From Oscillospiraceae bacterium (GTDB lineage Bacteria; Bacillota; Clostridia; Oscillospirales; QAMX01), in assembly GCA_015068345.1 (NCBI GenBank), contig SVKS01000003.1, forward strand, positions 2,168-66,167: a stretch of DNA of 64,000 nt, in the 5' to 3' direction. The stretch's first letter is position 1, and every line of letters starts with the position of its first letter. The notes under the pieces were generated by a model. That model had not been told where the DNA came from. It searched no databases and worked only from the letters and a program-made list of their open reading frames with translations. The position numbers were made by a program, and so were the translations under genes. Positions 1,502-50,759 of this stretch are shown here, in pieces.

Positions 1502-2368
1502 ATGAAAAAAACTCGCTCAATTTGGATCATCATTGTCGCAATCGTTCTCATCATCACAGCGGGACTCCTTGCCTGTTATCCCCTCATCAGCAGTGCGGTA
1601 AACAGCAAGTACCAGTCGCTGATTGAAACCACCTACGAAGAGGAACTGGAAGTCCTTGACAAAGACGACATTCAGCTTGCGAGGGAGGAAGCCCAACACT
1701 ACAACGAATGCATCAGTGTGCAGTACACTTTGGAGGATATCCGTTTTGCCGTGTCCACCTACGACGAATTACTAAACCTGACCTCCAGCGGTATCATGGG
1801 ATACCTGGAGATTCCCACTATTTCGGTTATGCTCCCCATCTACCACGGTACCGATGCCGAAACTCTGGAAAAGGGAATCGGACACCTGATCGGTTCCTCA
1901 CTGCCCATTGGTGGGGAAGGCACCCACTCGGTTCTCACCGGGCATTCAGGAACTGCCGGTAAAAGACTCTTCTCGGACCTGGAGAATCTGGCCTGTGGGG
2001 ATATATTCTACCTTCACGTTCTGGATGAGACCTTGGCCTACATGGTAGACGGGATCCATACCGTTCTTCCGGAAGAAACCGAACGTCTAAAGGCTGTGGA
2101 AGGGGAAGATCTCTGTACCCTGGTAACCTGTACCCCATTCGGAGTCAACTCCCACCGACTTCTGGTTCGTGGGACACGGATTCCCTACGAGGAAATCACT
2201 GAGCTTCCTCTTCCCGAAGAGCAAGTCGAAGGTTCCGAATCCATTTGGGAACAGGAATACATCCGGGGACTCACCATGGGATGCGGTGTGCTGGCTTTCT
2301 TTGCGGCACTTTCGCTGACTCTGTGGTTCTTCCCCGCAGGGAGGAAGGAAAAACATGGCAAAAAATAA
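1502..2368 (+). CDS. srtC: class C (pilin-polymerising) sortase
   Basis: N-terminal TM helix, LPIYHGT...GIGHL...GHSG block, catalytic Cys motif TLVTCTP, Arg motif HRLLVRG, C-terminal hydrophobic anchor + KEKHGKK. SD AGAGAGGA lies before the AUG. Confidence 0.9.
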   Translation: MKKTRSIWIIIVAIVLIITAGLLACYPLISSAVNSKYQSLIETTYEEELEVLDKDDIQLAREEAQHYNECISVQYTLEDIRFAVSTYDELLNLTSSGIMGYLEIPTISVMLPIYHGTDAETLEKGIGHLIGSSLPIGGEGTHSVLTGHSGTAGKRLFSDLENLACGDIFYLHVLDETLAYMVDGIHTVLPEETERLKAVEGEDLCTLVTCTPFGVNSHRLLVRGTRIPYEEITELPLPEEQVEGSESIWEQEYIRGLTMGCGVLAFFAALSLTLWFFPAGRKEKHGKK

Positions 2369-3077
2369 AGCAATTGGGATCCTATGTGTGATTCTATTGG
2401 TCTGTGGCCTGATGCTCTTCCTTTTCCCATCCATCCGGTCGGCAGAAGATCGGGAGTCCGGGCAACAGGATATTGCTTTTTTTGAAGAAACTATCACCGA
2501 TATTACAGTAGCCTCTTTTGACTCGGAAGATACCACTCTGGACACCATCCTGCCTTTTCCTGCACTCTACAAAGCATCCCTTACCTACAACAGGAATCTC
2601 ATAGAGAACTACCAGAAAGACCTGTCCTCTGCCCGGCTTGCAATCCCTCACCTGGATTTGAAAGCTTATGGATTTGAAGCCGAGTGCTTTGGCATTCTGG
2701 AAATTCCTTCGGTTGGCTACGAGGTCCCTGTGTACCTGGGAAGTTCAGATTTCCATCTGGAAAAAGGTGCCGCCCTTCTTGGCGGCACCTCACTTCCCAT
2801 CGGTGGGACAAACACTCACGCTGTCATTGCGGGACACAACACCTGGCGGGGATCCAAGCGATTTGACCTGCTCCGTGAGCTTTCCCCCGGTGACACGGTT
2901 CTTTTCCGGAACCCCTGGGAAACACTTACCTACAGAATTGTTTCAAAAGACATCATTCTCCCTGATGAATCAGACACCATTCGCATTCAGCCTAACCGGG
3001 ATCTGCTTTCCCTTTTGACCTGCACCCATCCGAATACCCACAGAGTGTTAATTGTATGTGAGAGAGAACTCCTATGA
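2355..3077 (+). CDS. second sortase, class C-like, without C-terminal membrane anchor
   Basis: N-terminal TM helix, VPVYLGSS...LPIGG...IAGHN block, Cys motif LLTCTHP, Arg motif HRVLIVCERE. The start overlaps the upstream sortase by 14 nt. The ORF stops 10 codons after the catalytic Arg, right at the AT-rich island boundary. Confidence 0.85.
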   Translation: MAKNKAIGILCVILLVCGLMLFLFPSIRSAEDRESGQQDIAFFEETITDITVASFDSEDTTLDTILPFPALYKASLTYNRNLIENYQKDLSSARLAIPHLDLKAYGFEAECFGILEIPSVGYEVPVYLGSSDFHLEKGAALLGGTSLPIGGTNTHAVIAGHNTWRGSKRFDLLRELSPGDTVLFRNPWETLTYRIVSKDIILPDESDTIRIQPNRDLLSLLTCTHPNTHRVLIVCERELL

Positions 3078-3167
3078 TGGATCTCCTATAAAGAACCAGA
3101 AACATTCAAGTGAATCAATCAAAACAAGTCGTCAGTTGCGCAAATACGTGAATCATCATATTGCAAC

Positions 3168-3196
3168 TTGACAAGCACGAGAAAACGCAGTATAAT
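3168..3196 (+). promoter_or_regulatory. sigma-A type promoter for the first island gene
   Basis: TTGACA (3168-3173), 17-nt spacer, TATAAT (3191-3196). Both hexamers are perfect consensus. Confidence 0.65.
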
Positions 3197-3240
3197 TGAA
3201 TCATGAGTTAGTAACTTACGAGTTGATAAGGAACAATGGT

Positions 3241-4632
3241 ATGTTTTATTGTAGGGATAATGAGCTTCGTGATATGAACCGTCGATACATCAGAGGTGAC
3301 TTTGAATGTCTAATTGTTTATGGTCGAAGACGTGTCGGCAAGACTGCTCTGATCAATGAATTCTGTAAGAATAAGCCTACGGTATTCTTCTCTGCGCTAA
3401 ACGCAAGTGATAAAGAAAACCTTGAAGCACTGTCGAAGGCCATCTACGAAAAAGATCACCCAGGTACGGATTCTGCGCCGGTGTTCCAGAGCTTCGAAGC
3501 AGCTCTTGATCAGATAACCCATATAGCAGAAAAGGAGCGGCTTGTATTTGTTATCGACGAATACCCCTACCTTGCTAAGGCAAACAAATCGATTTCCTCC
3601 CGTCTGCAACATATCATTGACCATAAATGGAAAAACAGTCAGCTTTATCTGATCCTCTGCGGTTCATCCATGAGCTTTATGGAGTATCAGGTACTCGGTT
3701 ATGAAAGCCCTCTGTACGGCCGCCGAACCGGTCAGTATAAGATTCAGGCACTGACCTACAAGGAAATGACTGCCTTCAATCCGACCCTGACAAACGAACA
3801 ACAGTCTCTTGTCTACGGCATCACCGGCGGTATCCCCCATTATGTCAATAAGCTTGATGTTTTCGATGATGTGGATGAAGCACTAAAGGAGAACCTGTTC
3901 AATACCTCCAGTTATCTCTTTGAAGAACCGGAGAATTTGCTAAAACAGGAACTTCGTGAACCAGCGATCTACAATTCCGTGATCACAGCAATTGCGGGTG
4001 GCGCATCACGTTCCAATGAAATATCCACAAAGGTTGGTATCGAATCAGCAATATGTGCAAAATACCTGAAGGTCCTGCTTGATCTTGGCATTATCAAAAA
4101 AGAGACACCACTCACAGAAAAACCGGGTAAGAAAACCATCTATACCATAGGAGATAATTTCTTCCGCTTCTGGTATCGTTTCGTCCCTCAAAACACCTCC
4201 TCCATTAGTGCAGGACGTATCGAGCAGATATATGACCCCGTTATCAAGCGTTATTTGCCAGACTATATGGGCCTGGTATTCGAGCAGATGTGCCGTGAGT
4301 ATCTGTTGCGATACGCAACAGATCTGCCAATGATTCTATCGGATATCGGTCAATGGTGGGGCACGGATCCGAAGGTCAAGAAAGAAGTCCAGATCGACAT
4401 AGTTGGTTCTCCGGTCGAGGGTGATGAGTATATTATCGGTTCCTGTAAATATCGCAGTGATCCCGTCGGTGTGGATGAACTGGAGTTGATCCGTCATTAT
4501 GCAGACGTCTTTGGTAAAGGTAAGAAGTATCACTTCTATATCTTCTCCAAATCTGGTTTTACCAAGGGACTGCAGGAACTTGGCGATATGGGAGAGGTCA
4601 ATCTTGTTACACTGGATGATATGTACCGTTGA
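3241..4632 (+). CDS. AAA+ ATPase of the Arch_ATPase/DUF234 type (ATPase + C-terminal nuclease-like module)
   Basis: Walker A GRRRVGKT, Walker B VFVIDEYPY, LILCGS and GITGGIPHYV blocks, C-terminal QIDIV...GSCKY block. The listed TTG start at 3196 lies in the -10 box, so the AUG at 3241 (MFYCRDNEL...) is preferred. Confidence 0.75.
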   Translation: MFYCRDNELRDMNRRYIRGDFECLIVYGRRRVGKTALINEFCKNKPTVFFSALNASDKENLEALSKAIYEKDHPGTDSAPVFQSFEAALDQITHIAEKERLVFVIDEYPYLAKANKSISSRLQHIIDHKWKNSQLYLILCGSSMSFMEYQVLGYESPLYGRRTGQYKIQALTYKEMTAFNPTLTNEQQSLVYGITGGIPHYVNKLDVFDDVDEALKENLFNTSSYLFEEPENLLKQELREPAIYNSVITAIAGGASRSNEISTKVGIESAICAKYLKVLLDLGIIKKETPLTEKPGKKTIYTIGDNFFRFWYRFVPQNTSSISAGRIEQIYDPVIKRYLPDYMGLVFEQMCREYLLRYATDLPMILSDIGQWWGTDPKVKKEVQIDIVGSPVEGDEYIIGSCKYRSDPVGVDELELIRHYADVFGKGKKYHFYIFSKSGFTKGLQELGDMGEVNLVTLDDMYR

Positions 4633-4935
4633 AAATGATGTACCCCATTGGATTTTGGTAAACTGAATAGTAAGCATACGAGGATTAAGCATACCCCTGT
4701 CATCTTCCGCTGTTTTTTCTGACAGGTACAATTAACATAGAATGAAATCGAGCCGCTGACGACACCCCTTTTTAGAGTTGAATACCAACCACCGGAATAG
4801 CGCCTCGCCATTCGTCGGTTTTCTGAGCATTCTCGAAAAAGTTAAAACCATAATGCGTATATTCTCTTGACGAAGCGGATATATTTATGATAAAATACGG
4901 TTGATCATAGATTTTCCTAAATTTAGAGGTGTGAT

Positions 4936-6159
4936 ATGGTATACATTCAACGTGAGCTTGAGCGAAAATTCTTAAAGCTCAATGATTTTTTCAAGGTTGT
5001 TCTTGTTACGGGGGCACGGCAAGTCGGAAAAACGACAATGTTGAAGCATTTAGCAGAGAGTAGCAGAACCTATGTTACTATGGACAATGCAATGGCGAGA
5101 GAGCTTGCACAATCTGATCCCGTGTTGTTCTTTCAAACCTATAAGCCACCTGTCCTCATTGACGAAGTCCAGAAAGCACCCGAGCTATTCGAACAGATTA
5201 AAATTATTTGTGACGAAAGTGATGAAAAGGGGCTTATCTGGCTCACTGGCTCACAGCAATACAAGATGATGAAAAAGGTCCGTGAAACCCTTGCGGGAAG
5301 AATTGGTATTCTGGAACTGTACAGCTTATCAGCGAGAGAAAAAGCCGGGCTTGTATTCGATACCGACTTGGATTTCTCTCTCCCCACATTGCAGGCAAGG
5401 CAGCGCAAACTTCCCAAAAACGATGTAATTCATGTGTTCAATCACATCTGGGAAGGTGGCATGCCACAGGTACAGGGTGCGGACGATGAACTCAGGCAAG
5501 AGTATTTCAATTCCTATATCGACACCTATCTCATGCGTGATGTTGCCGAAGCCGGCGGCATTACGGATACGGTGCGTTTCCGTAAATTCCTTGTGGGCTG
5601 TGCATCCCTTGTGTCGGAACAGGTCAATTACTCCACGCTGGCGGAGTCTGCCGATATTGCACCAAGCACCGCAAAAGAATGGCTGAAGATTCTTGAAGGC
5701 CTTCATATTGTCTATTTGCTTGCACCATATTCCAACAATGAGCTAAAACGACTCAGTAAAACCCCGAAGCTATACTTCTGCGATACCGGATTGTGTGCCT
5801 ATCTCTCTATGTGGCTAACACCGGATACTCTACGCAACGGAGCGGCAAGTGGTCATTACTATGAAAACTATGTTGTGATGGAGCTTGTTAAGAACTATGC
5901 CTACGCAAAATCCAAGGTAAATATCACCTACTTCCGTGATTCCAATGCAAAAGAAATTGATGTATTCGTCGAGGAAAACAATGTCATTCATCCGCTGGAG
6001 ATAAAAAAGAGTGCCGCCCCCGACCGCCGTGAAGTTAAAAAGTACAGCGTAATCGACAAAGCTTCTTTGAACCGTGGAACCGGCGGCATCATCTGTATGT
6101 GTGAAGAACCGATACCGATTGATGCAGATAATTGCTTTATTCCGAGCAATCTCATCTAA
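4936..6159 (+). CDS. AAA+ ATPase of the AAA_14/DUF4143 type (ATPase + C-terminal PD-(D/E)xK-like module)
   Basis: Walker A GARQVGKTT, Walker B VLIDEVQK, C-terminal EIDVF...x12...LEIKK (D...ExK pattern). SD AGAGGTG lies before the AUG. Confidence 0.75.
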   Translation: MVYIQRELERKFLKLNDFFKVVLVTGARQVGKTTMLKHLAESSRTYVTMDNAMARELAQSDPVLFFQTYKPPVLIDEVQKAPELFEQIKIICDESDEKGLIWLTGSQQYKMMKKVRETLAGRIGILELYSLSAREKAGLVFDTDLDFSLPTLQARQRKLPKNDVIHVFNHIWEGGMPQVQGADDELRQEYFNSYIDTYLMRDVAEAGGITDTVRFRKFLVGCASLVSEQVNYSTLAESADIAPSTAKEWLKILEGLHIVYLLAPYSNNELKRLSKTPKLYFCDTGLCAYLSMWLTPDTLRNGAASGHYYENYVVMELVKNYAYAKSKVNITYFRDSNAKEIDVFVEENNVIHPLEIKKSAAPDRREVKKYSVIDKASLNRGTGGIICMCEEPIPIDADNCFIPSNLI

Positions 6160-6201
6160 ACAATTTCAAACAGCCCAAGAAAGCATCTCTGCCGATATGA
6201 T

Positions 6202-6247
6202 CCCCCTAAAGTAGACCACAGAAATATCCAAAGTCTATTTTAGGGGG
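6202..6247. repeat. 15-bp inverted repeat (1 mismatch, 16-nt loop); possible terminator or recombination-related site
   Basis: ccccctaaagtagac ... gtctattttaggggg, 43 nt after the ATPase stop codon. Confidence 0.4.
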
Positions 6248-6639
6248 TATTTCTATGGCCAAATCAAAGCATACCGCAGAGTGGAAGATAGAAATCCATT
6301 GCTTTCGGCATTTATAGCATTGATCTATAATTTGCTCCGACATTAGAATATTTCGTTTCTATTTCCGCCATCGCAGAATACCGAATAAACCTAAGATCAT
6401 ATTCTACACAAAGCCTTATTCATCTCCCGAATTTCTTAGAAAGGTGGTAGCCAAAAATCGAGAGACCTTATAGTTCGGAGACACACAAGCTAACTGTTCA
6501 AAACGAAGAATTTACTATCACTAACATTTCACCTATTTACTCAGAAGAAGAATATCCACTTGTTAAGAGGGGAATAGAATTGCAACTCTATGAAGTATTC
6601 AGCAAGCACATGCCCATTGAGTCCTAAAAGGGGACATCC

Positions 6640-6668
6640 TTGCAAAATTGAAGCTACTGCTTTATACT
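6640..6668 (+). promoter_or_regulatory. sigma-A type promoter for the recombinase gene
   Basis: TTGCAA (6640-6645), 17-nt spacer, TATACT (6663-6668). Followed by SD AAAGGAG and the TTG start at 6720. Confidence 0.5.
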
Positions 6669-6719
6669 ATCCATGTCGTTTGTAGCTCATCTTGACAATA
6701 TGCGAAGAAAGGAGTTATA

Positions 6720-8228
6720 TTGAACCTTTTTGATGCAATCTATACCAGACAGTCGGTAGACCGAATTGACAGCATATCGGTGGAAAGCCAGGCAGAGTTC
6801 TGCAAAAAGGAGGTGATGGATGGCCTATATAAAGTCTATACAGATCGAGGGTACAGCGGAAAAAATACCGATCGACCTGCATTTCAGGAGTTAATGGAGG
6901 ATATACAAGAGGGAAAAATCCGTCGAGTCATTGTTTATCGTCTTGACCGCATCAGTCGTTCTGTTTTGGACTTTGCAAATGTCATTGATGTTTTCCAAAA
7001 GCATCATGTCGATTTTGTGAGTACAATGGAGAAGTTTGATACCGGAAGCCCCATTGGTAAAGCTATGCTGATGATTGTAATGATCTTTGCTCAGCTGGAG
7101 CGAGAAACAATTCAACAGCGTGTAACCGATGCGTATATCTCCCGCAGCAAACGCGGGTTTTATATGGGTGGACGAGTAACCTATGGCTTCGAGTTGCAAG
7201 ACACCATGATTGAAGGCATACGTTCCAAAAAATATGTCCCTATTGAATCCGAGGCAAATGTGATTCGCACCATCTTTGCTTTATATGCTGAGCCTCAAAC
7301 TTCTTTGGGTGATGTAATGAGACACCTTGAACAGGCAGGTATCACAAAACGAAATGGTAAACTATTCAATCGTTCTGGTTTGAGAGATATCGTTATCAAT
7401 CCTGTATATGTCAAAGCAGATTATCAGATATATGACTTTTTCAAAAACCAGGGAACAAACATAGCCAATATTCCCGAAGATTTTATAGGGACAAACGGAA
7501 CATATTTGTACTCTGGTACCACAAAAAAACGAAAGACCGTTTCCCTTGAAGGTCATACATTGGTGTTGGCTCCACACGAGGGTTTAATCGATTCGCAGAC
7601 ATGGTTAAAATGTCGGGTGAAATGTTTGAATAATCATAGTGTTGCAAGGCCAATCAAAGCGAAGGTTACTTGGCTGGCAGGAAAGATCAAGTGTGGATGC
7701 TGTGGTTATGCACTTACTGCAAAAATATATCACTGCAAAACAAAAAGCGATAACCGTTACTATCTCTGCAGCAACAAATATCATGCCGGAGGCTGTTCCT
7801 TTGGATCCCTAAACGCAGATAAAGTAGACGAAATTGTTTTTCGCGAAATGCAGAAGAAGCTTTCCGAATTCAAGGTCCTTCGGAAACAAGAGACCGAAAA
7901 GTTAAACCTCACTTCCCTTAAAATACGGGAACGTATCGCAGAGATTGAGACCGAGATCTCTTCTCTGCTTGATAAACTTACTGTGGCAAATACTACTGTT
8001 GCAGAATACATCAATTCTCGTATCTCTTCCTTGGATTCGGAAAAGAAAGAGTTATACAAGGAGCTTTCTCAGGCTGATTCATCCGCAAAAAATACAGCGG
8101 AGATTCTTAGTGATTATTTTAGTCACTGGGACGATCTTACCATCAGTGAAAAGATAACCGTCGTTGATATTATCATTGAAAAAATCGTTGCCACAGAAGA
8201 AGAAATTCAAATTATTTGGAAAATTTAG
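6720..8228 (+). CDS. large serine recombinase (resolvase/invertase N-domain + recombinase domain + zinc ribbon + coiled coil)
   Basis: N-terminal AIYTRQS (Ser nucleophile context), VYRLDRISRS, ERETIQQRV. Cys-rich zinc-ribbon block KCGCCGYALTAKIYHCK...YYLCSNKYHAGGC. C-terminal heptad-like region. TTG start with a good SD. Confidence 0.9.
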   Translation: MNLFDAIYTRQSVDRIDSISVESQAEFCKKEVMDGLYKVYTDRGYSGKNTDRPAFQELMEDIQEGKIRRVIVYRLDRISRSVLDFANVIDVFQKHHVDFVSTMEKFDTGSPIGKAMLMIVMIFAQLERETIQQRVTDAYISRSKRGFYMGGRVTYGFELQDTMIEGIRSKKYVPIESEANVIRTIFALYAEPQTSLGDVMRHLEQAGITKRNGKLFNRSGLRDIVINPVYVKADYQIYDFFKNQGTNIANIPEDFIGTNGTYLYSGTTKKRKTVSLEGHTLVLAPHEGLIDSQTWLKCRVKCLNNHSVARPIKAKVTWLAGKIKCGCCGYALTAKIYHCKTKSDNRYYLCSNKYHAGGCSFGSLNADKVDEIVFREMQKKLSEFKVLRKQETEKLNLTSLKIRERIAEIETEISSLLDKLTVANTTVAEYINSRISSLDSEKKELYKELSQADSSAKNTAEILSDYFSHWDDLTISEKITVVDIIIEKIVATEEEIQIIWKI

Positions 8229-8350
8229 GAGTCCATATTGTACTCATTCTATGACTCTTGTTCAGGTGAAGCACTTCGGATCGTTACCGACCGGCTTGAC
8301 CAGAAGAACATCTACGCCTTCAACCCCGCCCTGCCCCCGAATCTGCGATA
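8229..8350 (+). pseudogene. orphan 3' coding remnant of a backbone gene at the right island junction
   Basis: Directly after the recombinase TAG, the same frame stays open for 40 codons (ESILYSFYDSCSGEALRIVTDRLDQKNIYAFNPALPPNLR*). Composition switches to GC-rich at about 8262. A strong terminator follows. There is no start codon or SD. Confidence 0.3.
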
Positions 8351-8355
8351 GCGCA

Positions 8356-8396
8356 AATCCCCGCCTTTTCACAAAGGCGGGGATTCTGTTTCTTTC
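8356..8396 (+). terminator. rho-independent terminator
   Basis: aatccccgcctt-ttcaca-aaggcggggatt (12-bp stem) followed by the T-rich ctgtttctttc. Confidence 0.7.
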
Positions 8397-8457: not shown

Positions 8458-9438
8458 ATGCCCATGAATACCCCCATTTACTCAGGAATCATCACCAATT
8501 ATGTCTGTACCGCCGCCTGCCGGCATTGTATGTTCGCCTCTTCCCCCGCTCTGCCCAAGGAATATATCTCCCGGGAGATGGCGGAGAGGCTGGCAAGGCT
8601 CCTGCGGAAAGCGGGAACCGACTCGGTACACATCGGTGGGGGCGAACCCTTTATGGATTTTGAAGCCCTTACCACCTTGATTGCCTGTCTGAACGACCAG
8701 GGAATCGGTATCGACTACATCGAAACGAACGCCTTTTGGTGCAAAAACGAGGATTTTGCTCGAAAGCGGCTCACCCACCTGCGTTCCCTGGGAGTGGAGA
8801 CCATCATGGTTTCGGTGGATCCCTTCCATATTGAATACATTCCCCTGGAGCGACCCATTCGTCTATGTCAACTGCTCCGGGAGAGTGGCTTTGACTATTT
8901 TGTGTGGAAGGAGCGTTATCTTCGCATGCTTTCCCGTCTGGACCGGACCCGTACCTACTCCCATCAGGAGTTGAAGGATATTCTGGGGGAGGATTACGTC
9001 ACCGAAACCGCCCGAGAATACGGGCTTGGTATGAATGGACGAGCTCTGGGCATTGCGAAAGACCTTTTCCCCCGCTGTCCGGCAGAGCACTGGCTAAGCA
9101 ACTCCCCCTGTGGTTCCATTGGGGACACCGCCCACTGCCACCTGGACCTTTACGGGAATATCGTTCCCTCCGGCTGTCCGGGGCTTTCAGCAAAAGCAGA
9201 GGATTATCTGAACGAAGCCTTTCCCGCCGACCGATATCCGGTTTTGTCCCGTCTGGCAACGGGCGGCACGACGGCGCTTTTCAATTACGCAAGGGAGAAG
9301 GGATTCACTCCTGATCCCGCAGGATATCCCAGCCGTTGCTCCCTTTGCTACGCCATGCGAGTCTTCCTTTTGGAGATGGCCCCCTCCCAGGATCTCGCCC
9401 CCGTTTGCTTTTACCGTGGGATGGAAGCGGTTACATAA
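8458..9438 (+). CDS. radical SAM protein with C-terminal Cys-rich (twitch/SPASM-like) region
   Basis: CX3CX2C motif CTAACRHC at residues about 15-22 and a GGGEPF SAM-binding block. C-terminal CHLDLYGNIVPSGCPG and CSLCY cysteines. AUG at 8458 with SD AAGGAGA. The listed 8164 start would read through a terminator and promoter. Confidence 0.8.
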   Translation: MPMNTPIYSGIITNYVCTAACRHCMFASSPALPKEYISREMAERLARLLRKAGTDSVHIGGGEPFMDFEALTTLIACLNDQGIGIDYIETNAFWCKNEDFARKRLTHLRSLGVETIMVSVDPFHIEYIPLERPIRLCQLLRESGFDYFVWKERYLRMLSRLDRTRTYSHQELKDILGEDYVTETAREYGLGMNGRALGIAKDLFPRCPAEHWLSNSPCGSIGDTAHCHLDLYGNIVPSGCPGLSAKAEDYLNEAFPADRYPVLSRLATGGTTALFNYAREKGFTPDPAGYPSRCSLCYAMRVFLLEMAPSQDLAPVCFYRGMEAVT

Positions 9439-9835
9439 ACTCCATCTCCGCCACGTCATCCATGGGGATCCGAAGACCATCCTGCAAAACCAGGAACCGG
9501 TCGAAATCGTTTACCTTTTTGACCCTTCCCTTCACCGTAACGTAGGCACCGCCGCTTTTGCGGTCATCGGGCACAAAGTAAGTGACGGAAATTTCCGGAT
9601 GGTCCGCCAGGTGGTCCATCAGGATCCGGAACTGGGTATTGAGCACCGCCAGCCGCTCCTCCCCGGCTTCCAGTTTTTCATCGGTGAGCCGGCCGGTTTC
9701 CAAAATGGCATCATCATAGCCGGTGAGGGCCGCAAAGGGGGAAAACTGGGCCGCCCGGTCCGCCATGGACATGGGCGGGCGGGTCTTGGATACGTGGTGG
9801 GGCAGGTGGATGATGTCTTCGTAATTGTCCTTCAC
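9431..9835 (-). CDS. YolD-like protein (accessory to Y-family polymerase)
   Basis: IIHLPHHVSKTRPPMSMADRAAQFSPFAALTGYDD is typical of the YolD family. The GTG start overlaps the polymerase stop (GTGA). Confidence 0.75.
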   Translation of the reverse strand: MKDNYEDIIHLPHHVSKTRPPMSMADRAAQFSPFAALTGYDDAILETGRLTDEKLEAGEERLAVLNTQFRILMDHLADHPEISVTYFVPDDRKSGGAYVTVKGRVKKVNDFDRFLVLQDGLRIPMDDVAEMEFM

Positions 9836-11337
9836 GCCTTATGTCCCCCAATCTGGGCATTCCGATCCTTGGCGGTTGCCCCTTCTTCCAAATTCATCCC
9901 CTTCAGGATGGCGTTTTTCCCAAACTTCTTCTTGATGGTCAGCATGGCCTGTTGGCGTTTCCTTTCCCGTTCCAGGTCGGCTCTCTCCGCTTCCCGTTTG
10001 GCATCCTCCGCCGCATAATCGGTGAAAAAATCCAATTGCTCCGCAACAGGTTCTTCCACCCGATCCCCTTCGGCAATCACGTGGTTTGCCACCACGTTCA
10101 ACCGTCGCACCAGAAGGTCAGGATCCACGATCCGGTCAAAGAGCTCGGCCACCGCATCCAGGATTTTCTTGGTGGAGGAGGTGAATCCCCCCAGGTTAGC
10201 AGTGCCATGGGCATGCTTGGGAACTTCCCTTCCGTAGTGATCCACCGTGATCTCCCCATGATAGTTTTTGCGCCGGGTGGAATCGGTGAGATTTTCGATG
10301 TCGTAGCCCACCGTTACCACCAGCTGATCGGTGACAAGTCCCTTGTCCACCAGATCCAGCACCAAAAGATCGGTCATTTCCCGAAGCACCAGCCTGGCCT
10401 TTTCCGCCGGGTAGGGTTGATGGAGCACCTGGCCGGAACCCAGGCTGTTGCTGGCGGGTTTGTAGGCCTTGATGGCCTCCATGGTGCAGGGCTCCCACCC
10501 CCAGGCGTGGTCGATCAAAAGCTCCGCATTTTTCCCGAAGAGTTTGTAAAGCAGATTTTCATTGTAAACCGAGCATCGGGCCACGTCCCCCATGGTGAAA
10601 AGGCCGTGTTCCTCCAGCTTTTTGGCATATCCCCGACCCACCCGCCAGAAGTCGGTTAGGGGTTTGTGATTCCACAGTTCCTTTCGGAAACGCTTTTCGT
10701 CCAGTTCGGCAATACGGACCCCATTTTTGTCGGGAGGAATGTGCTTGGCTACAACGTCCATGGCCACCTTGCAGAGGAATAGATTGGTTCCGATGCCGGC
10801 GGTGGCGGTGATGCCGGTGGTTTCCAGCACGTCCAGAATCATCTTCATGGTCAGTTCCTTCGGCGTAAGCTTATAGGTATCCAGGTAGTTGGTCACGTCC
10901 ATAAACACCTCGTCAATGGAATAGACCACGATATCCTCCGGTGCCACGTACTTCATGTAAACGTTGTAAATACGGGTGCTGTATTCCATATACAGCGCCA
11001 TTCTGGGGGGCGCAATCAAAAAATCCACCGCCATGGCGGGATTGGCCCGCAGTTCCGAATCGAAGCAGGAAGACCATTGGGTCTTCTTTCCCGGGGCGGC
11101 GTAAGCCCGGGCTTGGTTTACCTCCCGGACACGCTGTTTCACCTCAAAAAGACGCCCCCGGCCCGAAATACCATAGCTTTTCAGAGAGGGGGTCACTGCC
11201 AGACAGATGGTTTTGTCGGTACGGCTTTCGTCCGCCACCACCAGGTTGGTGTTCATGGGATCCAGACCCCGCTCCCGGCACTCCACCGAAGCATAAAAGC
11301 TTTTCAGGTCGATGGCAATGTAGGTCGGTTCCCTCAT
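9832..11337 (-). CDS. Y-family (translesion) DNA polymerase, UvrX/DinB-like
   Basis: N-terminal YIAIDLKSFYASVECRERGLDP, SIDEVFMDVT, and little-finger region. AUG at 11337 (MREPTYIAIDL) has SD AGGAGG; the listed 11403 start lies in the promoter. Confidence 0.88.
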   Translation of the reverse strand: MREPTYIAIDLKSFYASVECRERGLDPMNTNLVVADESRTDKTICLAVTPSLKSYGISGRGRLFEVKQRVREVNQARAYAAPGKKTQWSSCFDSELRANPAMAVDFLIAPPRMALYMEYSTRIYNVYMKYVAPEDIVVYSIDEVFMDVTNYLDTYKLTPKELTMKMILDVLETTGITATAGIGTNLFLCKVAMDVVAKHIPPDKNGVRIAELDEKRFRKELWNHKPLTDFWRVGRGYAKKLEEHGLFTMGDVARCSVYNENLLYKLFGKNAELLIDHAWGWEPCTMEAIKAYKPASNSLGSGQVLHQPYPAEKARLVLREMTDLLVLDLVDKGLVTDQLVVTVGYDIENLTDSTRRKNYHGEITVDHYGREVPKHAHGTANLGGFTSSTKKILDAVAELFDRIVDPDLLVRRLNVVANHVIAEGDRVEEPVAEQLDFFTDYAAEDAKREAERADLERERKRQQAMLTIKKKFGKNAILKGMNLEEGATAKDRNAQIGGHKA

Positions 11338-11373
11338 GGTTTCCCCTCCTTTCGAAAAACGCTTGTTTGCACT

Positions 11374-11403
11374 ATCATACCACAAAGAACATCCGTTTGT
11401 CAA
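11374..11403 (-). promoter_or_regulatory. promoter with embedded LexA (Cheo-box-like) site for the polymerase operon
   Basis: Minus strand: TTGACA (11403-11398), 18-nt spacer, TATGAT (11379-11374). Plus-strand AGAACATCCGTTTG at 11386-11399 fits GAAC-N4-GTT(T). A weaker GAAAAACGCTTGTTT lies downstream. Confidence 0.5.
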
Positions 11404-31964: not shown

Positions 31965-33563
31965 ATGTCCATCGAAGCATACAAGACTACCATTGCCACC
32001 GGCCAGGCCGTTTTGGGCCTGGAACTGGGCAGTACCCGCATCAAGGCGGTCCTTATTGGAGAGGACCACAACCCCATTGCCAGCGGCAGCGCCGACTGGG
32101 AAAACAAGCTGGAAAACGGCATCTGGACCTACTCCCTGGAGGAGGTTTGGGCGGGTGTGCGTCTGAGCTTTGAAAACCTGAAAAAGGACGTGACCAAAAC
32201 CTACGGCATCCCCCTGAAAAAACTGAAGGCCATGGGGATTTCGGGCATGATGCACGGTTACCTGCCCTTTGACAAGGATGACAACCTGCTGGTCCCCTTC
32301 CGTACCTGGCGCAACACCATGACCGAAGAAGCTACCAAGATCCTCTCCCCCCTCTTCGGCTTCAATATTCCCCAGCGTTGGAGCATTGCCCACCTTTATC
32401 AGGCCATCCTCTCAAAGGAAGCGCACGTGGATCAGATCACCCATTTGACCACCATTGCAGGCTATCTCCATTGGAAGCTCACCGGCAAATTTGTCATGGG
32501 TGTGGGGGAAGCCTCCGGTATGTTCCCCATTGATCCGGTCACCGGGGATTACGATGCAGCCATGCTTGCCGCTTTTGCCAAGCTGATGGAAAAGGAAGAT
32601 CTCCCCTGGACTCTGACCGAGATCCTGCCCACCGTGCTTTCCGCCGGGGAAGCCGCCGGGGAGCTCACCGCTGAAGGGGCCGCCCTGTTGGATCCCGCTG
32701 GGGAGCTTGTCCCGGGGATTCCCTTCTGTCCCCCGGAAGGGGACGCCGGCACCGGCATGGCCGCCACCAACAGCGTTACCCCCTTCACCAGCAACGTCAG
32801 CGCCGGCACCAGCATTTTCTCCATGGTGGTGTTGGACAAACCCCTGAATCACTATTATCCCGAAATCGACGTGGTTGCCACTCCCGCCGGACACCCGGTG
32901 GCTATGGTGCATTGTAACAACTGTACCTCCGATATCAACGCCTGGGCCCAGGTATTGATGGATTTTGCCGCCCGCATCGGTATGCCCATTTCCCGTGCCA
33001 AAGCCCTGGACACTCTCTTCTACGCCGCAAACGATGCCGATCCCGATTGTGGCGGCGTGGTCAACTACAACTTCTTCTCGGGCGAGCACATCGTGGGTCT
33101 GACCGAAGGCCGTCCCATGCTGGTCCGTGGGGAGAATGCCAACTTTAATTTTGCAAACTTCGCCCTCTCTGCTCTTTATTCCGCCACCGCCACCCTGCGC
33201 ATCGGGATGGACATCCTGATGGAAAAGGAAAAGGTACGCATTGATTCGGTGTTGGGTCACGGCGGCTTCTTCAAGGCCACCGGTGTGGGCCAGAAGGTAC
33301 TGGCTTCCGCCCTGAATACTCCGGTTTCGGTGATGCAGACCGCTGGGGAAGGCGGCCCCTGGGGAATGGCCCTCCTTGCCGCCTATATGGCAAACAAGGA
33401 AAGCGGTGAAACCCTGGAAGCCTACCTTCAAAACAAGGTCTTTGCCGCATCGGCCAGCAGTACCGTGGAGCCCGATCCTGCCATGCACGAGGGCTTTAAC
33501 GCCTACCTGGCCCGCTACAAAGCCGGTCTCCCCGCCGAACAGGCCGCGGTGGACACCCTGTAA
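31965..33563 (+). CDS. FGGY-family carbohydrate kinase (pentulose kinase; ribulokinase/xylulokinase-like)
   Basis: LGLELGSTRIKAVLI phosphate-1 motif, GISGMMHGYL, PEGDAGTGM, GHGGFFK blocks. AUG at 31965 follows AAGGAGG. araD lies immediately downstream. Confidence 0.75.
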   Translation: MSIEAYKTTIATGQAVLGLELGSTRIKAVLIGEDHNPIASGSADWENKLENGIWTYSLEEVWAGVRLSFENLKKDVTKTYGIPLKKLKAMGISGMMHGYLPFDKDDNLLVPFRTWRNTMTEEATKILSPLFGFNIPQRWSIAHLYQAILSKEAHVDQITHLTTIAGYLHWKLTGKFVMGVGEASGMFPIDPVTGDYDAAMLAAFAKLMEKEDLPWTLTEILPTVLSAGEAAGELTAEGAALLDPAGELVPGIPFCPPEGDAGTGMAATNSVTPFTSNVSAGTSIFSMVVLDKPLNHYYPEIDVVATPAGHPVAMVHCNNCTSDINAWAQVLMDFAARIGMPISRAKALDTLFYAANDADPDCGGVVNYNFFSGEHIVGLTEGRPMLVRGENANFNFANFALSALYSATATLRIGMDILMEKEKVRIDSVLGHGGFFKATGVGQKVLASALNTPVSVMQTAGEGGPWGMALLAAYMANKESGETLEAYLQNKVFAASASSTVEPDPAMHEGFNAYLARYKAGLPAEQAAVDTL

Positions 33564-33575
33564 GGAGGTCATATC

Positions 33576-34277
33576 ATGCTGGAAGCTTTGAAAAAACAGG
33601 TTTGCGAGGCAAACCTTCTTCTCCCCAAATACAACCTGGTGGTCTTCACCTGGGGCAACGTTTCGGCCATTGACCGAAAAAGCGGGCTGATGGTGATCAA
33701 ACCCAGCGGTGTTTCCTACGAGGAGCTGAAACCTGAGGATATGGTGGTTCTTGACGTGGCCACCGGCGAAAAGGTGGAAGGAAGCCTTTCCCCCTCCTCC
33801 GACACCGAAACCCATCTGGCCCTCTACCGGGCTTTCCCGGAAATCGGCGGCATTGTTCACACCCATTCCCGTTGGGCCACCATCTACTCCCAGGCGGGCA
33901 TGCCCATTCCCGCCCTTGGCACCACCCACGGCGACTACTTCTACGGCGAAATCCCCGTCACCCGCGCCATGACCCCCGATGAGATTGGCGGCGGCCCGGG
34001 CCATTACGAGGCTGAAACCGGTAAGGTCATCATCGAACGCTTTGACGATCTGGATCCCAACCAGGTGCCCGCCTGTTTGGTGAAAAGCCACGGTCCCTTC
34101 ACCTGGGGCAAGGATGCAAACGATGCGGTGCACAATGCGGTGGTTTTGGAAGAGCTGGCCTTCATGGCGTGGCACACCCAGGCCATGGCCCCCGGTATTT
34201 CTCCCATGCAGCAGGAGCTTTTGGACAAGCACTACCTGCGTAAGCACGGCAAAAACGCCTACTACGGCCAGAAATGA
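33576..34277 (+). CDS. araD: L-ribulose-5-phosphate 4-epimerase
   Basis: [10 protein letters not shown]...VIKPSGV...[11 protein letters not shown]...GGIVHTHS...SHGPFTWG class II aldolase/epimerase signature. Confidence 0.88.
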
Positions 34278-34939
34278 CCCGCCACGTCCTTTTTGATTGC
34301 TTCGGCACCCTGCTGGATACCGGCTCGGGTTCCATCCGGGCTGTAGAAACGATTTTGACACATTTGGGCTCCCCACTGGAGCCCAAAGCTTTTTATGCTG
34401 CATGGAAAACCGAGAAAAAGCGGATGATGCACACCCCTCCCTTCCGGAATGAAAAGGACCTCTTCGCCGAAAGTCTTGGTGTGCTTTTCAAACGCTACGG
34501 CATCCAGGCCGATCCAAGAGTGGAAGTGGGTCCCATGATTGATTCCCTGTTTGCCACCCGCCCCCTCTTCCCCGACGTGTGGAAGACTCTAGATGAACTG
34601 GATCGGCGGGGCATTGACTATGCCATCGCCTCCACCACCGACACCGATTCCCTTCTCCATTACCTAAAGGAAGCGGAGCTTTCGGTTCCCCTGGTCTTCA
34701 CCTCGGAGGATCTGCAGGTTTACAAGCCTGACCCCCAGTTTTACCAAACCATTCTGGAGCAAACCGGTTGGCAGATTTCGGAATGTCTCTTCGTTGGGGA
34801 CAGCCCGGAGGACGACGTTTTGGGTCCCGCCGCCTTGGGTATGCCCGCCATCCTGCTGGACCGGAAAGACAGCCACCAGGATTTCCCCCACCCCCGCATT
34901 GGAAGTCTTACCAAACTTACGGAATACCTGCAACCATAA
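34274..34939 (+). CDS. HAD-superfamily hydrolase
   Basis: [11 protein letters not shown] (DxD-type motif I variant), [17 protein letters not shown] motif IV. ATGA overlap with araD. Confidence 0.75.
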
Positions 34940-34978
34940 AAAAGTCCGACGCAGCTTTTGTTCTGCGCCGGACTTTTA
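34938..34978. terminator. bidirectional terminator
   Basis: aagtccg(a)cgcag-loop-ctgcg(c)cggactt flanked by A- and T-runs. Confidence 0.6.
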
Positions 34979-34980
34979 CT

Positions 34981-37536
34981 TTAGCTTTCAATTTTCACGT
35001 TCAGGGCTAAATCAAACAACTTTTCTGCCTCTGCTCCGGTTACACCATAATTATGGGTTCCCTTTTTTCCGGAAGAGTGATTGTAATCCATCCATATCCA
35101 AACACCATCCTGGTCATAGCCAACCGTCACCCTGCGACCCCATTGGTTGGTATATTTTTTTGTGTAGGCTGCTTTGGTTGGTTTGAATCCCTTCTTCCAG
35201 GTTCCGATTACAATCTGCCGATGATCCACATGACTAAGCATGACCCGGATAATACGGTCCCCATCAAAATCTTCCCTATGCACTTCGTATTCAGAAGGAT
35301 ATTCCACGGAAATATCCAGGCTTTCTGCCACAAGAACATATTTCCCCTCGCGACACTCTATTTCCGGAAGCCCGGTCAGTGTTCCCTTTTTCAGCGCAAC
35401 GGCAAATACCCAAACATTCTCACTGCCGCCGCCCGTACCGGCAATTTCCCCCTCTCCACCGGCGGGATACCAATGCATCAGAATCACCGATTTTCCGGTA
35501 TCCTCATGGGTATCGAGAAATACTTCCCTTACTTGACAGGAACTCTCGGTTCCACCCAGGTACAAATATAGATCATATTCCCTAAAAAACGCTTGATCAT
35601 ACCGTTGGATCAAGTACCGTTTCAAATCTACCCGCGGATCACCCTCTCCCAATTCGGGGTTGTAGGCCCCTTGAAAAGGCCAAACCCTATATTCCCCATG
35701 GGGTAGCTGTTCAAGATCGGATTCGGAGCGAATAATCATTTGCTTCGTTTCTGCTTTCTCCCACTCACTTACCAGAAGCAGACTTTCAAATTCACATGCT
35801 TCAGCTGATTCCGGTTTTTCCGGAGAACGAACCTGTAACGGTGGTTGCCACGGCCCGGTGTCCTCATACACCATATCATGCGGGCAGGAAGCAAGGCTTA
35901 CGTAACGAAAAATTTCATTGGCAATCAGCGATTTGTCCCGTGAAATATCGGGATGCAGATATCCCCCATAGCAACCGGAAGGATCTTCAAAATCCATCCA
36001 AATCCATTTTCCGTCTTTGTCCATACCCATCTCTATGTCTCCTTCCCAAAAGGTAGGAAGGCTACTGAATGACTCGGCTTCGGTTTGTATAAATCCGTTT
36101 GGATAATAACCAACCTCTGCAAAAACCTCCTCCGGGACGCCATCAAAGTAAAGCCGAAGTCCCACAAAATCAGCATCCATATAGGTTTTGAACCGATATC
36201 CGCTGTTTTCCATAACCCGGTAAGCCAGCGATACACCGTTGCCCCGGTATATTGCCGAAACGATTTCCGCATCCTCCGTCTGAGTCACCACCACATCGGG
36301 AAGCATCCCATTCAACCTTCCCTTTTCCACCTCAACAGCTACCAGCCAATCACGCATGGCCCCTTCCGAATCCCGGTACCATTCCACATTCTCCCTGCCG
36401 GATTTCCGTACCGTAATTTGCATTTCATATCGTTCTTTTTCCCAGTTCCAGTTCAGATCCGATACCGTATAGCTTCCAAGGGGATCGGCCTGGCGAATCA
36501 GGAAGAGAAACAAATCCTTCTTTTCAAAATATTCCCCGTCGTAGCTTTCGGTAAAACTTTCAAAGGAAAGAGTCGGATCGGATTCGGTGGATGCCGGATC
36601 GCCAGGCGCAAGATAGGGCCATAAAAGCATTCCATCATAAAGATCGGTATTTTTGAAATCTGCTTCGGAGGAAATCAGCACCTTCCCCATAGGATAGTCC
36701 AAAAGACCGGCTCGATATGCATCCCGGATCAGCGATCCGGTTTCGGGTGATAAGATTTCATAAAACTCTGTTTTTGCAAGCTTGCCCGGCACCTCGATAT
36801 CCTTCACAATGGTAGTTTCGGAGCCGGCAAAACTCAGTTCTCCGGAATCTCCCAACAACACTTCCATATCGGTATACAAGGTTTCTTCCATCACCTTAAC
36901 CAATGGGAATGCAGCTTCCCCTACTCCGATGATATCCTTTTCCACCTCCATGGCAATGCACCACCGGGCCGGGGCCATATTGTCTGACGTGGTGTGAAGA
37001 CATTGCAAATTCAGCTCATACCGTCCGGTTTCCATATTCAGGGTAAAATCCAATAGTTCGGGACGGTTTTGGCCCTGCCCAAGGTTGATTTGAAACAACA
37101 GCAAATCGTGGTCTACAAAGAATTCCTCCGGATAACGAGATGCCACCACATCAACAAATGATCTTCTCTCTCCGTTGCTTTCAAAAGTCAGGGAGGTGTA
37201 GTATTCCAGCTCGCTAAACGACGCTTCGTTCCGCACCACTGTTTCCGCCGCCGCAGGAGATGGCACGCCGGTATCGATTCCTACATAATATTGCTTTTCC
37301 ACCGCCTGTAAAACCGAATTTTCTCCAACGTCAGCAATCCGCCATGCATACCCTTGGTATGGCACCATACTCTGAAGGGGTTTTGGGGAAACCAGATTCT
37401 CCACGTGGACGTCCTCTGTGTTATTTTCTTCCTGTTGTATCTCACTCTGCACTTCGGTGGTAGTATATCCACATCCTCCCAAAAGCAGGATTGCTATTGT
37501 AAACAGAATCCCGATCCATATACTCCTTTGCTTCAC
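34981..37536 (-). CDS. 851-aa multi-module lipoprotein of the tandem family (module order D1-D1-D2-D1-D2)
   Basis: GTG start. Signal peptide with lipobox LLLGGC|G. Three copies of the FF-x-x-x-DL-x-L ... EVEKG-type module and two copies of the GYD/DKDG-x-W-x-WMD[FY]...SG module. Confidence 0.7.
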   Translation of the reverse strand: MKQRSIWIGILFTIAILLLGGCGYTTTEVQSEIQQEENNTEDVHVENLVSPKPLQSMVPYQGYAWRIADVGENSVLQAVEKQYYVGIDTGVPSPAAAETVVRNEASFSELEYYTSLTFESNGERRSFVDVVASRYPEEFFVDHDLLLFQINLGQGQNRPELLDFTLNMETGRYELNLQCLHTTSDNMAPARWCIAMEVEKDIIGVGEAAFPLVKVMEETLYTDMEVLLGDSGELSFAGSETTIVKDIEVPGKLAKTEFYEILSPETGSLIRDAYRAGLLDYPMGKVLISSEADFKNTDLYDGMLLWPYLAPGDPASTESDPTLSFESFTESYDGEYFEKKDLFLFLIRQADPLGSYTVSDLNWNWEKERYEMQITVRKSGRENVEWYRDSEGAMRDWLVAVEVEKGRLNGMLPDVVVTQTEDAEIVSAIYRGNGVSLAYRVMENSGYRFKTYMDADFVGLRLYFDGVPEEVFAEVGYYPNGFIQTEAESFSSLPTFWEGDIEMGMDKDGKWIWMDFEDPSGCYGGYLHPDISRDKSLIANEIFRYVSLASCPHDMVYEDTGPWQPPLQVRSPEKPESAEACEFESLLLVSEWEKAETKQMIIRSESDLEQLPHGEYRVWPFQGAYNPELGEGDPRVDLKRYLIQRYDQAFFREYDLYLYLGGTESSCQVREVFLDTHEDTGKSVILMHWYPAGGEGEIAGTGGGSENVWVFAVALKKGTLTGLPEIECREGKYVLVAESLDISVEYPSEYEVHREDFDGDRIIRVMLSHVDHRQIVIGTWKKGFKPTKAAYTKKYTNQWGRRVTVGYDQDGVWIWMDYNHSSGKKGTHNYGVTGAEAEKLFDLALNVKIES

Positions 37537-50646: not shown

Positions 50647-50759
50647 ATCTCTAAACCCTGTTCCATGTGGAAGAATTTGAACCTTCCCGGAAAACGTCAT
50701 GGAATGGAATTGACAAGGGAAAAGCACGAAAGAAAAATAAAGTACCGAAAGGATGGAAT

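Follow-up and report, generated by a model that had tools for sequence, protein, structure and literature searches.

Positions 4722-8264 of a 64,000-nt stretch of DNA from an Oscillospiraceae bacterium (contig SVKS01000003.1 of GenBank assembly GCA_015068345.1, positions 2,168 to 66,167; the whole stretch is called the window here) are best explained as a small, non-phage element that intervenes in the spore-coat gene cotJC and is driven by a large serine recombinase. We hold this explanation, together with the history of this copy given below, with good confidence. Judged by its sequence, the region can be placed firmly among the small, non-phage elements that intervene in sporulation genes, because it combines the recombinase with a right attachment site (attR) and a fragment of cotJC. 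What had the appearance of a defence islet is a site-specific element aimed at a spore-coat gene. A cotJC-targeting element explains the boundary of low guanine-cytosine (GC) content, an orphan open reading frame (ORF) of 37 codons and a terminator.

An earlier note on this DNA had described positions 3078-8262 as one 5.2 kb low-GC island, in which a serine recombinase carried two ATPase-plus-nuclease genes as payload. Much of that description stands. The GC content was 0.37-0.48 over about 3000-8250 and 0.51-0.58 in both flanks. The ORF list gave three long intact ORFs in 3078-8262, and Pfam agreed on what they encode: a DUF234 ATPase (ATPase_2 6.8e-27, DUF234 5.3e-18), a DUF4143 ATPase (AAA_14 2.3e-27, DUF4143 6.6e-43) and a large serine recombinase (Resolvase 2.3e-33, Recombinase 4.2e-13, Zn_ribbon_recom 1.1e-12). 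ORFs and Pfam also bore out that 3078-8262 holds no relaxase, replication or phage gene. A serine-recombinase mobile element is indeed present, with a recombinase that has its own arms and targets cotJC, and the right boundary at 8262 falls within a few bases of the attR crossover region. The single island with a two-gene payload did not hold up, as the recombinase arms bound about 4722-8264, with the DUF4143 gene only, and leave the DUF234 gene outside. The note overlooked the specificity for the sporulation gene cotJC, which is the element's defining property. It also overlooked the cotJC 3' fragment, the recombination arms at 8245-8261 and 4728-4744, and the small ORF at 6457-6627.

Features of the element and its right flank (coordinates, strand, description):
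4722-4782, plus strand: left site remnant, a core remnant followed by the P' arm ACAATTAACATAGAATG (4728-4744), 55/61 identical to the canonical left site (attL)
4867-4896, plus strand: DUF4143 gene promoter, TTGACG-18-TAAAAT with TG (10/12 match, TG-extended)
4936-6159, plus strand: AAA_14 + DUF4143 ATPase, the sole cargo gene inside the element (Pfam; PADLOC PDC-S01)
6204-6247, no strand: hairpin with 15-bp arms, CCCCCTAAAGTAGAC...GTCTATTTTAGGGGG, found in the sequence
6256-6318, after the hairpin: 20-codon stub MAKSKHTAEWKIEI... (ORF MAKSKHTAEWKIEIHCFRHL), like the start of an IS3-type orfA
6378-6406, plus strand: ATA-N17-CATATTCTA, mother-cell-like promoter upstream of the small ORF and the recombinase
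6457-6627, plus strand: small conserved ORF of 56 codons upstream of the recombinase, candidate recombination directionality factor
6720-8228, plus strand: large serine recombinase, intact (Pfam; phrog_95 integrase 1e-101)
8245-8270, plus strand: attR, made of the P arm CATTCTATGACTCTTGT (8245-8261) and the core GGTGAA (8265-8270), from a 38-region alignment; inverted repeat of the relatives' P' arms
8265-8351, plus strand: cotJC 3' end after attR, encoding GEALRIVTDRLDQKNIYAFNPALPPNLR up to the stop, the last 28 codons (87 nt, own start codon missing)
8356-8385, plus strand: intrinsic terminator of cotJC, a 13-bp stem and then a T run

The cotJC target

A scan of contigs, one genome per species, gave 254 relatives of the recombinase. 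The best 80 of these, 63-77% identical to the window recombinase, were compared, with flanks of up to 10 kb. About 20 nt past the recombinase stop, 62 of the 80 carried a homologue of the 37-codon ORF. In the aligned DNA behind the recombinase (38 downstream regions), variation fell mostly on third codon positions, a start codon was missing, and a stop codon was followed by a hairpin terminator. Positions 8265-8351 were read as coding because of this third-position variation, the stop codon and the terminator. A search with the consensus peptide returned only proteins of 29-70 aa, labelled spore coat protein JC or manganese catalase family (PF05067), and GEALRIVTDRLDQKNIYAFNPALPPNLR aligned with the C-termini of intact CotJC, e.g. 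GEALRLVQDKLDEKNFYAFNPAFDR. By the source annotations of the matches, cotJC is a spore-coat gene of the Mn-catalase family PF05067. In the window, its 3' part (8265-8351) lies directly at the attachment site.

By a strict count, at least 61 of the 80 relatives adjoin a cotJC piece. At L088, L089, L093, L095 and L112, both halves of the gene flank an element of 3.8-8.3 kb. The 5' part in relatives comprises the first ~175 codons and ends ...REVVHYQRFGEA, the split falling after ...HYQRFGE. Rejoining the halves of L089 gave a protein of 204 aa (Mn_catalase 2.3e-50), with a CotJB gene upstream, and the rejoined CotJC was colinear across the junction with uninterrupted cotJC in 79 other genomes. 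Insertions also occur in reverse: at L098, L100, L117-L119, L121 and L122, the cotJC 5' part follows the recombinase directly on the opposite strand. The recombinases of this reverse-orientation sub-branch are 64-70% identical, and their gene faces the cotJC 5' part.

Other readings of the DNA behind the recombinase were rejected. A read-through or frameshift extension of the recombinase does not fit the frame relation to the downstream ORF, which varies between loci. A split sortase gene does not fit relatives that have no sortase nearby. For a target in a noncoding RNA or tRNA, the 120 conserved nt that follow the recombinase had no Rfam match, and ARAGORN found no tRNA or tmRNA in the window.

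Two relatives carry a second cotJC 3' end, starting from GEAL, 1.2-1.5 kb downstream of the first (L057:12754-12831, L099:3122-3199). These duplicated ends may be traces of tandem or degraded elements.

Recombination sites and the left junction

In relatives, attR consists of an element-side arm, CATTCyAC...GATTGT, followed by TCAGGTGAAGC. At attL the gene ends ...TTYGGNGARGC and the element opens with ACAATC...GTGGAATG, which repeats the other arm in inverted form. The core common to both ends is GGTGAA. The window's P' arm, which lies in the spacer between the DUF234 and DUF4143 ATPase genes, matches the reverse complement of the P arm at 13 of 17 positions. From these sites we predict attB as ...CAAAGATTTGGTGAAGCACTTCGG... 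and attP as ...CTCTTGTTCAGGTGAACAGGTACAATT..., and on the same grounds the element proper is taken to span about 4722-8264, with the DUF4143 ATPase, the small conserved ORF and the recombinase.

At the left end, the other part of the target gene abuts the other attachment site in L088, L089, L093, L095 and L112, and not in the window. Neither the 64 kb window nor the 8.5 kb adjoining it upstream yielded a cotJC 5' part. The same organism very probably has a cotJC-to-P' junction at a second locus: in each of six metagenome runs, one contig carries GGAGATCGTGCATTATCAAAGATTTGGTGA, then 61 nt that are 55/61 identical to window positions 4722-4782, and then different DNA. These contigs independently confirm the partner arm of the window. 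The 30-mer GGAGATCGTGCATTATCAAAGATTTGGTGA codes for EIVHYQRFGE, with which the cotJC 5' part ends, and it lies at the right position in intact cotJC genes. This junction also occurs in L303, a water-buffalo caecum metagenome-assembled genome (MAG; RGIG7259, contig JAFYNU010000204.1). The depths of the attL contig and the window contig in the six runs were 71/71-83, 9.5/9.3, 6.8/8.4, 7.8/8.3, 5.1/7.6 and 2.1/4.9. Because these depths track each other, the cotJC 5' part and a second P' arm very probably lie in the same genome, elsewhere or further upstream. The sequence after that second P' arm was absent from the window, from the 8.5 kb upstream and from a scan of viral contigs.

The cotJC piece in L303 (1-2900) is a middle fragment of 45 codons, about codons 132-175, with a DUF4368-type serine recombinase and a DUF4838 gene upstream. 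In that lineage, cotJC has therefore been cut at two positions, the second cut lying near codon 130 (...EDM/AAEQKAR...). Many database proteins of 50-80 aa begin M(I)AAEQKAR, one of them on at least 1000 contigs, which suggests that a second hot spot near codon 130 is common. A search for truncated CotJC ending ...GEQVQLT returned only CotJC C-terminal fragments of 50-80 aa.

Comparison with L010 adds a second flank context for the element. L010 matches the window only over 4921-8346, at 99.1% identity, and both flanks differ; on the right, the divergence begins exactly after the stop codon of the 37-codon ORF. The 29 differences are unevenly spread: 19 fall in 6324-6522, five in the DUF4143 ORF, four in 85 nt of cotJC (two of them protein-changing) and one in the 1.5 kb recombinase gene. 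The stretch 6324-6522 seems to be under little constraint, and the sharing with L010 and the uneven differences would count for recent mobility or recombination.

On the empty-site test proposed by the earlier note, intact cotJC is common in other genomes, and at least 17 same-species contigs were all occupied at the same place. The metagenome contigs encoding exactly these proteins, at least 17 in number, all had the identical arrangement, and look-ups of the exact sortase, radical SAM and recombinase proteins returned only occupied sites in this species.

The recombinase and its relatives

The recombinase has the domain architecture of large serine recombinases, a class of about 450-600 aa (Resolvase 6-146, Recombinase 177-300, Zn_ribbon_recom 318-377 in Pfam). 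Matches to the NCBIfam models CcrC, XisF and CcrB were far under their cut-offs, which places it outside these named subfamilies. By sequence, its relatives in the PDB are TP901-1 integrase and SprA, the latter among the closest (7.5e-16).

The best 80 relatives come from Oscillospiraceae, Acutalibacteraceae, Lachnospiraceae and unclassified Clostridia. About 16-20 of them carry an XRE-type regulator, a Viral_Rep-like initiator and an FtsK/SpoIIIE-like ATPase, a set that is the make-up of small mobilizable elements, and about 15 have a tyrosine-recombinase-like gene. A DUF4143 ATPase was present in only one relative, L089 (58% identical), as the sole cargo of a 4.0 kb cotJC element and in the same position. 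No DUF234 homologue occurred in the flanks of the 80, which covered up to 10 kb.

At the left end of the Rep/FtsK-type elements, about 560 nt without a long ORF are conserved (L053-L057, L103; e.g. L054:430-1090). This stretch lies between a promoter-like site and the XRE regulator gene and gave no hit in Rfam. Its role may be that of an origin, of a transfer site or of a structured RNA.

The DUF4143 ATPase

The sole cargo gene belongs to a widespread and conserved family. The PADLOC model PDLC04790 of the phage-defence candidate (PDC) family PDC-S01 matches the protein at 1.2e-96 over residues 3-400, with the full domain set. More than 120 clusters, drawn from different bacterial families, have it at 86-92% identity. 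At the DNA level, identity to three copies (L292, L298, L301) is about 75%, with difference proportions of 0.84-0.87 at synonymous sites (saturated) and 0.07-0.11 at non-synonymous sites. One of those copies lies in a housekeeping region close to SpoIVB and alanine racemase, another inside a conjugative element, and the third next to a type I-C CRISPR-Cas system. A block TTGACA...TTATGATAAAAT precedes DUF4143 homologues in three unrelated genomic contexts. The conserved unit consists of promoter and ORF, and homology ends at the stop codon. In a shallow alignment, E340, D342, E355 and K357 are conserved. No relative of the protein was found in the PDB by sequence.

Small open reading frame, promoters and hairpin

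A homologue of the small ORF, 55-67 aa long, lies just upstream of the recombinase in 68 of 82 clustered sequence sets (the 80 relatives, the window and L031). It had no Pfam or PHROG match. By position and size, we infer that it resembles directionality factors such as GirX, the 42-aa factor of the gin element (PMC5595907). The window copy reads ATC at the codon that aligns with the relatives' ATG.

About 45 nt upstream of the small ORF, 24 relatives have GGTATA-N17-CATATTTTA. The -10 element of sigma-K promoters is CATA---TA, and the sigma-E pattern is ATA...CATACA-T. We take the block at 6378-6406 to fit sporulation promoters of the sigma-E/sigma-K type, as a lead.

The earlier note had given each of the three genes its own promoter. 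The sites at 3168-3196 and 4867-4896 are well placed, whereas the 11/12 site at 6692-6721 is unlikely to be the recombinase promoter, because it overlaps that gene's ribosome-binding site and TTG start. Promoter-like sites are not enriched (13, versus 12.2 +/- 3.5 in shuffles).

At the hairpin (6204-6247), read depth is 3-4x that of its neighbours and contigs break in several metagenomes; it is single copy in the window. Hairpin and stub (6204-6318) are possibly the remnant of an insertion sequence.

The DUF234 ATPase

Features of the DUF234 gene and its upstream DNA (coordinates, strand, description):
3046-3056, plus strand: TGTTAATTGTA, within the final codons of sortase gene two; in inverted orientation it matches the inner part of the P' arm (4727-4737) perfectly
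3168-3196, plus strand: promoter-like site TTGACA-17-TATAAT upstream of the DUF234 ATPase gene (12/12 consensus match)
3241-4632, plus strand: Orc1/Cdc6-like AAA+ ATPase with winged helix and C-terminal DUF234, outside the element (Pfam; PADLOC PDC-S27)

The gene most likely starts at ATG 3241 and not at TTG 3196, because the family N-terminus MFxGRxxEL matches there. In other metagenome contigs, homology to it begins at about 3192-3206 and the upstream DNA differs. PADLOC model PDLC04984 (PDC-S27) matches the protein at 3.3e-52, and the domain set ATPase_2 + DUF234 is present. The family counts 8200 representative clusters.

An AlphaFold2 (AF2) model from a 61-sequence alignment reached a pLDDT score (predicted local distance difference test) of 96. 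Its fold matches 2qen and 2fna, residues 1-325 resembling the archaeal AAA+ proteins PABY2304 and SSO1545 and Orc1/Cdc6. Whole-chain Foldseek matches were confined to the AAA+ and winged-helix part, and the C-terminal domain was unmatched. In the model, the C-terminal unit has the order alpha-beta-beta-beta-alpha-beta (H327-358, E366-375, E382-391, E396-403, H411-424, E429-436), with E348, D386 and S401-x-K403 at the positions expected of a PD-(D/E)xK fold, in whose core helix 1 carries an acidic residue, strand 2 an Asp and strand 3 the (D/E)xK motif.

The motifs QIDIV...GSCKY and EIDVF...LEIKK, which the earlier note had picked out at the ends of the two ATPases, are both present. It was also right that a serine replaces an acidic residue in SCK: the consensus of 61 homologues is EIDI...GECKW, and its two Glu positions are occupied in the window protein by Q (2/61) and S (7/61). 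The DUF234 nuclease may be weak or inactive.

The ATPases as candidate defence genes

Both ATPases belong to families fused to PD-(D/E)xK nuclease domains, as the note had supposed; DUF234 and DUF4143 are listed in that superfamily (PMC3424549), and surveys describe PDC-S01 and PDC-S27 as ATPases fused to PD-(D/E)xK domains, with validation pending (PMC12988326). The HMM (hidden Markov model) check that it proposed gave matches to PADLOC phage-defence-candidate models for both proteins. The 145 PDCs are candidates; PDC-S01, like PDC-S27, is a single-gene family found by 'guilt by embedding', and among single loci in rumen genomes PDC-S01 ranks first in frequency. Neither ATPase had a PHROG match. 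No sign was found that the two act as a pair: the DUF4143 gene occurs alone in unrelated contexts, and no DUF234 homologue lies in the flanks of up to 10 kb around the 80 relatives of the recombinase. From family membership, the most likely role of the ATPases would be NTP-dependent sensing and cutting of foreign DNA in defence, and they are candidates for it.

Proposed history and alternative explanations

The recombinase would join an imperfectly palindromic attP, with arms CATTCyAyn...TTGT and ACAAt...TrGAATG around the core GGTGAA, to attB in cotJC at the codons for HYQRFGEAL. Insertion would split cotJC about 28 codons before its end. By analogy with skin in sigK, SP-beta in spsM and gin in gerE, the small ORF and the recombinase would be transcribed during sporulation from the mother-cell-type promoter, and the small protein would act as directionality factor in an excision that rebuilds cotJC. 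In this copy, attR and the recombinase are intact, the left arm is joined to foreign DNA with the DUF234 gene, and the small ORF has lost its ATG. The cotJC 5' part would lie elsewhere in the genome, beside a second copy of the left arm. With the left arm on foreign DNA and the 5' part elsewhere, simple excision here could therefore not make cotJC whole again. The element has probably become locked, or else it forms the right-hand part of an insertion that is rearranged or composite. The DUF4143 ATPase would be a passenger inside the element, and the DUF234 ATPase would have been acquired separately, next to it. The left junction may stem from a recombinase-mediated event at a pseudo-site, the sortase end.

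Several observations weigh against this account. To the left of 4722 lies not cotJC but the DUF234 gene's 3' flank; this junction is non-canonical, and the observed order could not be derived from a simple scheme. No excision product, empty site or circle was seen among assembled metagenome contigs, and all same-species contigs were occupied. The directionality-factor role and the sigma-E/K reading of the promoter are put forward for sequences that have no database match. On the side of the cargo, defence stays a hypothesis because the PDC families are candidates only. Purifying selection on the DUF4143 protein is very strong (pN 0.07-0.11), which is unusual for a defence gene, and its AF2 model (pLDDT 41) is unusable, coming from a shallow alignment in which all listed homologues are at least 86% identical. 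The DUF234 protein carries Q384 and S401 at two conserved acidic (Glu) positions.

The non-canonical attL would also suit a fossil, in which cotJC or sporulation has become dispensable, the element and the cotJC pieces are decaying, and the recombinase ORF is intact through recency only. The ATC start of the small ORF, the clustering of L010 differences in 6324-6522, the protein-altering nature of two of the four cotJC-fragment differences and the possible insertion-sequence stub at 6256-6318 point the same way. However, both the recombinase ORF (1 difference from L010) and the DUF4143 ORF (5 differences) are intact, the cotJC fragment retains its frame, stop codon and terminator, the promoter block is kept, and the same element occurs in a second flank context. 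Decay of this kind is a real possibility, which on balance we doubt. A composite or tandem array is rather unlikely. Such an array would run from the cotJC 5' part and a P' arm, via unknown DNA, the pilus and sortase genes and the DUF234 gene, to the window element and the cotJC 3' end, and either the whole array or its right unit would be excisable. One genome with two P' arms and a single P arm seen would be consistent with it, as would the second cut of cotJC in L303 by another recombinase element, the duplicated cotJC ends in L057 and L099, and the 11-nt P-arm-like sequence at the sortase end. Yet the window and the 8.5 kb upstream contain neither the cotJC 5' part nor the sequence that follows the other P' arm, the GC content of the pilus region is host-like, and immediately left of 4722 neither a second recombinase nor another P arm is present.

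Two further explanations concern the ATPases. If these genes were selfish single-gene units that spread by themselves and did not serve host defence, the 1.3 kb unit of DUF4143 gene and promoter in unrelated contexts and the great abundance of the family would be accounted for. The unit has no terminal repeats or target duplications, though, and homology stops at the stop codon; the DNA identity of about 75% with saturated synonymous sites indicates old residents instead of recent hops, and a PHROG match is missing, all of which makes the idea improbable. Least probable of all is the island of the earlier note, with a cooperating ATPase-nuclease pair as one defence or selfish module in 3078-8262. 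The continuous low-GC block, the PADLOC candidate models matched by both ATPase genes and the wholeness of the block in all same-species contigs speak for it. It conflicts with the left arm of the recombinase, which falls between the two ATPase genes, with the absence of DUF234 homologues from the flanks (up to 10 kb) of the 80 relatives, with DUF4143 homologues that occur singly, and with L010, where DUF4143 gene and recombinase lie together without the window's upstream sequence. The cotJC-intervening element with an abnormal left junction is the explanation that we prefer.

An extension of this explanation is that cotJC has been cut into at least three pieces by serial recombinase insertions near codon 130 and at codon 175, the window piece having become separated. 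We consider it quite unlikely. If it were true and CotJC were still made, the mother cell would have to recombine this DNA several times in a set order. In one such event, the window attR would be joined to a distant attL, and a long stretch with the DUF234 gene and perhaps the pilus genes would be removed or inverted. This would be a multi-step programmed genome rearrangement instead of a single clean excision.

Surroundings of the element

A repeat search found no convincing direct or inverted terminal repeats of the 5.2 kb island. The longest inverted pair of the region was the 11-nt TGTTAATTGTA pair, which sits at the left GC boundary; the copy at 3046-3056 is possibly a pseudo-site. The second class C sortase (2355-3077) stops right after ...THRVLIVCER and lacks the C-terminal hydrophobic tail found in the first sortase (1502-2368). 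The insertion may have truncated its gene.

Upstream of the window (L129/L130:1-5762), a second AAA_14 + DUF4143 ATPase, of 449 aa, is encoded on the opposite strand. Just upstream of the pilus locus are a 68-aa gene paired with a PemK toxin gene, genes for two sigma-70 region 4 proteins, and a Fic gene. Dozens of related metagenome contigs have, on one strand, a gene for a LexA-like S24 repressor and directly behind it a Y-family polymerase gene and the 134-aa gene. In the window organism (window 9431-11403, minus strand, and L130:632-1261), the polymerase pair has the reverse orientation and is 17 kb away from the LexA-like gene, with pilus genes, ATPase genes, recombinase element and radical SAM gene between them. 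The displaced synteny of the LexA-like gene, DinB and the 134-aa gene suggests a large inversion or insertion. No synteny around the radical SAM gene was found in 19 related species. Elsewhere in the window, four long ORFs of 663, 851, 782 and 773 aa (32412-37536, 48298-52988; frames as called) had no Pfam match at 1e-5.

Significance and comparison with known systems

Elements of this kind were already known, and cotJC had been noted as a target. What is new is how far the cotJC family extends in gut Clostridia and how diverse its cargo is, together with its defined sites and the odd, probably disabled state of this copy. With 254 relatives in one-genome-per-species contigs, interrupted sporulation genes may be common in uncultured gut Clostridia. 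The cargo of the family spans a Rep/FtsK mobilisation module to a lone candidate defence gene, and its members offer a resource of many natural recombinase/attP/attB sets in which the 6-bp core is defined. Both ATPases are members of candidate families that are two of the most abundant, and not a new paired system. The DUF4143 protein, about 88% identical across families despite saturated synonymous change, is a good PDC-S01 candidate for functional work.

The ATPases share full-length HMM matches, domain architectures and the PD-(D/E)xK-superfamily fusion with PADLOC PDC-S01 and PDC-S27. The window member of PDC-S27 differs in having Q and S at two conserved Glu positions. Like integrative mobilizable elements with serine recombinases, close relatives of the recombinase travel with Viral_Rep-like and FtsK/SpoIIIE-like genes, whereas the window element has no replication, relaxase or coupling gene in 3078-8262.

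As in skin (sigK; SpoIVCA) and SP-beta (spsM; SprA/SprB), a large serine recombinase splits a sporulation gene expressed in the mother cell (PMC4191935, PMC5499854, PMC5025042). SprA is among the closest solved structures, and the recombinase operon is preceded by a CATA-type promoter (here putative). Skin and SP-beta have the size of prophages, tens of kb, whereas members of the cotJC family measure 3-10 kb and have no phage genes, and their regulation is proposed here by analogy. A passage in a preprint (bioRxiv 10.1101/2021.11.22.469490) credits Abe et al. 2013 with cotJC as an integration locus found in silico, which is the locus used here. The family described here comes from gut MAGs of Oscillospiraceae, Acutalibacteraceae and Lachnospiraceae, with cargo from Viral_Rep + FtsK modules to a single ATPase.

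A further close system is gin in gerE of B. cereus ATCC 10987, with GirC and GirX (PMC5595907). Both are small non-phage elements in a sporulation gene, with a large serine recombinase near one end, a short motif-free protein as (here candidate) directionality factor, and attachment sites built as imperfect inverted repeats on either side of a short shared core. They differ in target (gerE in gin, cotJC here), in the number of recombinases (three in gin, one here) and in cargo, which here is a PDC-S01 ATPase. The window copy, known from sequence alone, differs further in a left junction that is not the target gene and in a small ORF without ATG.

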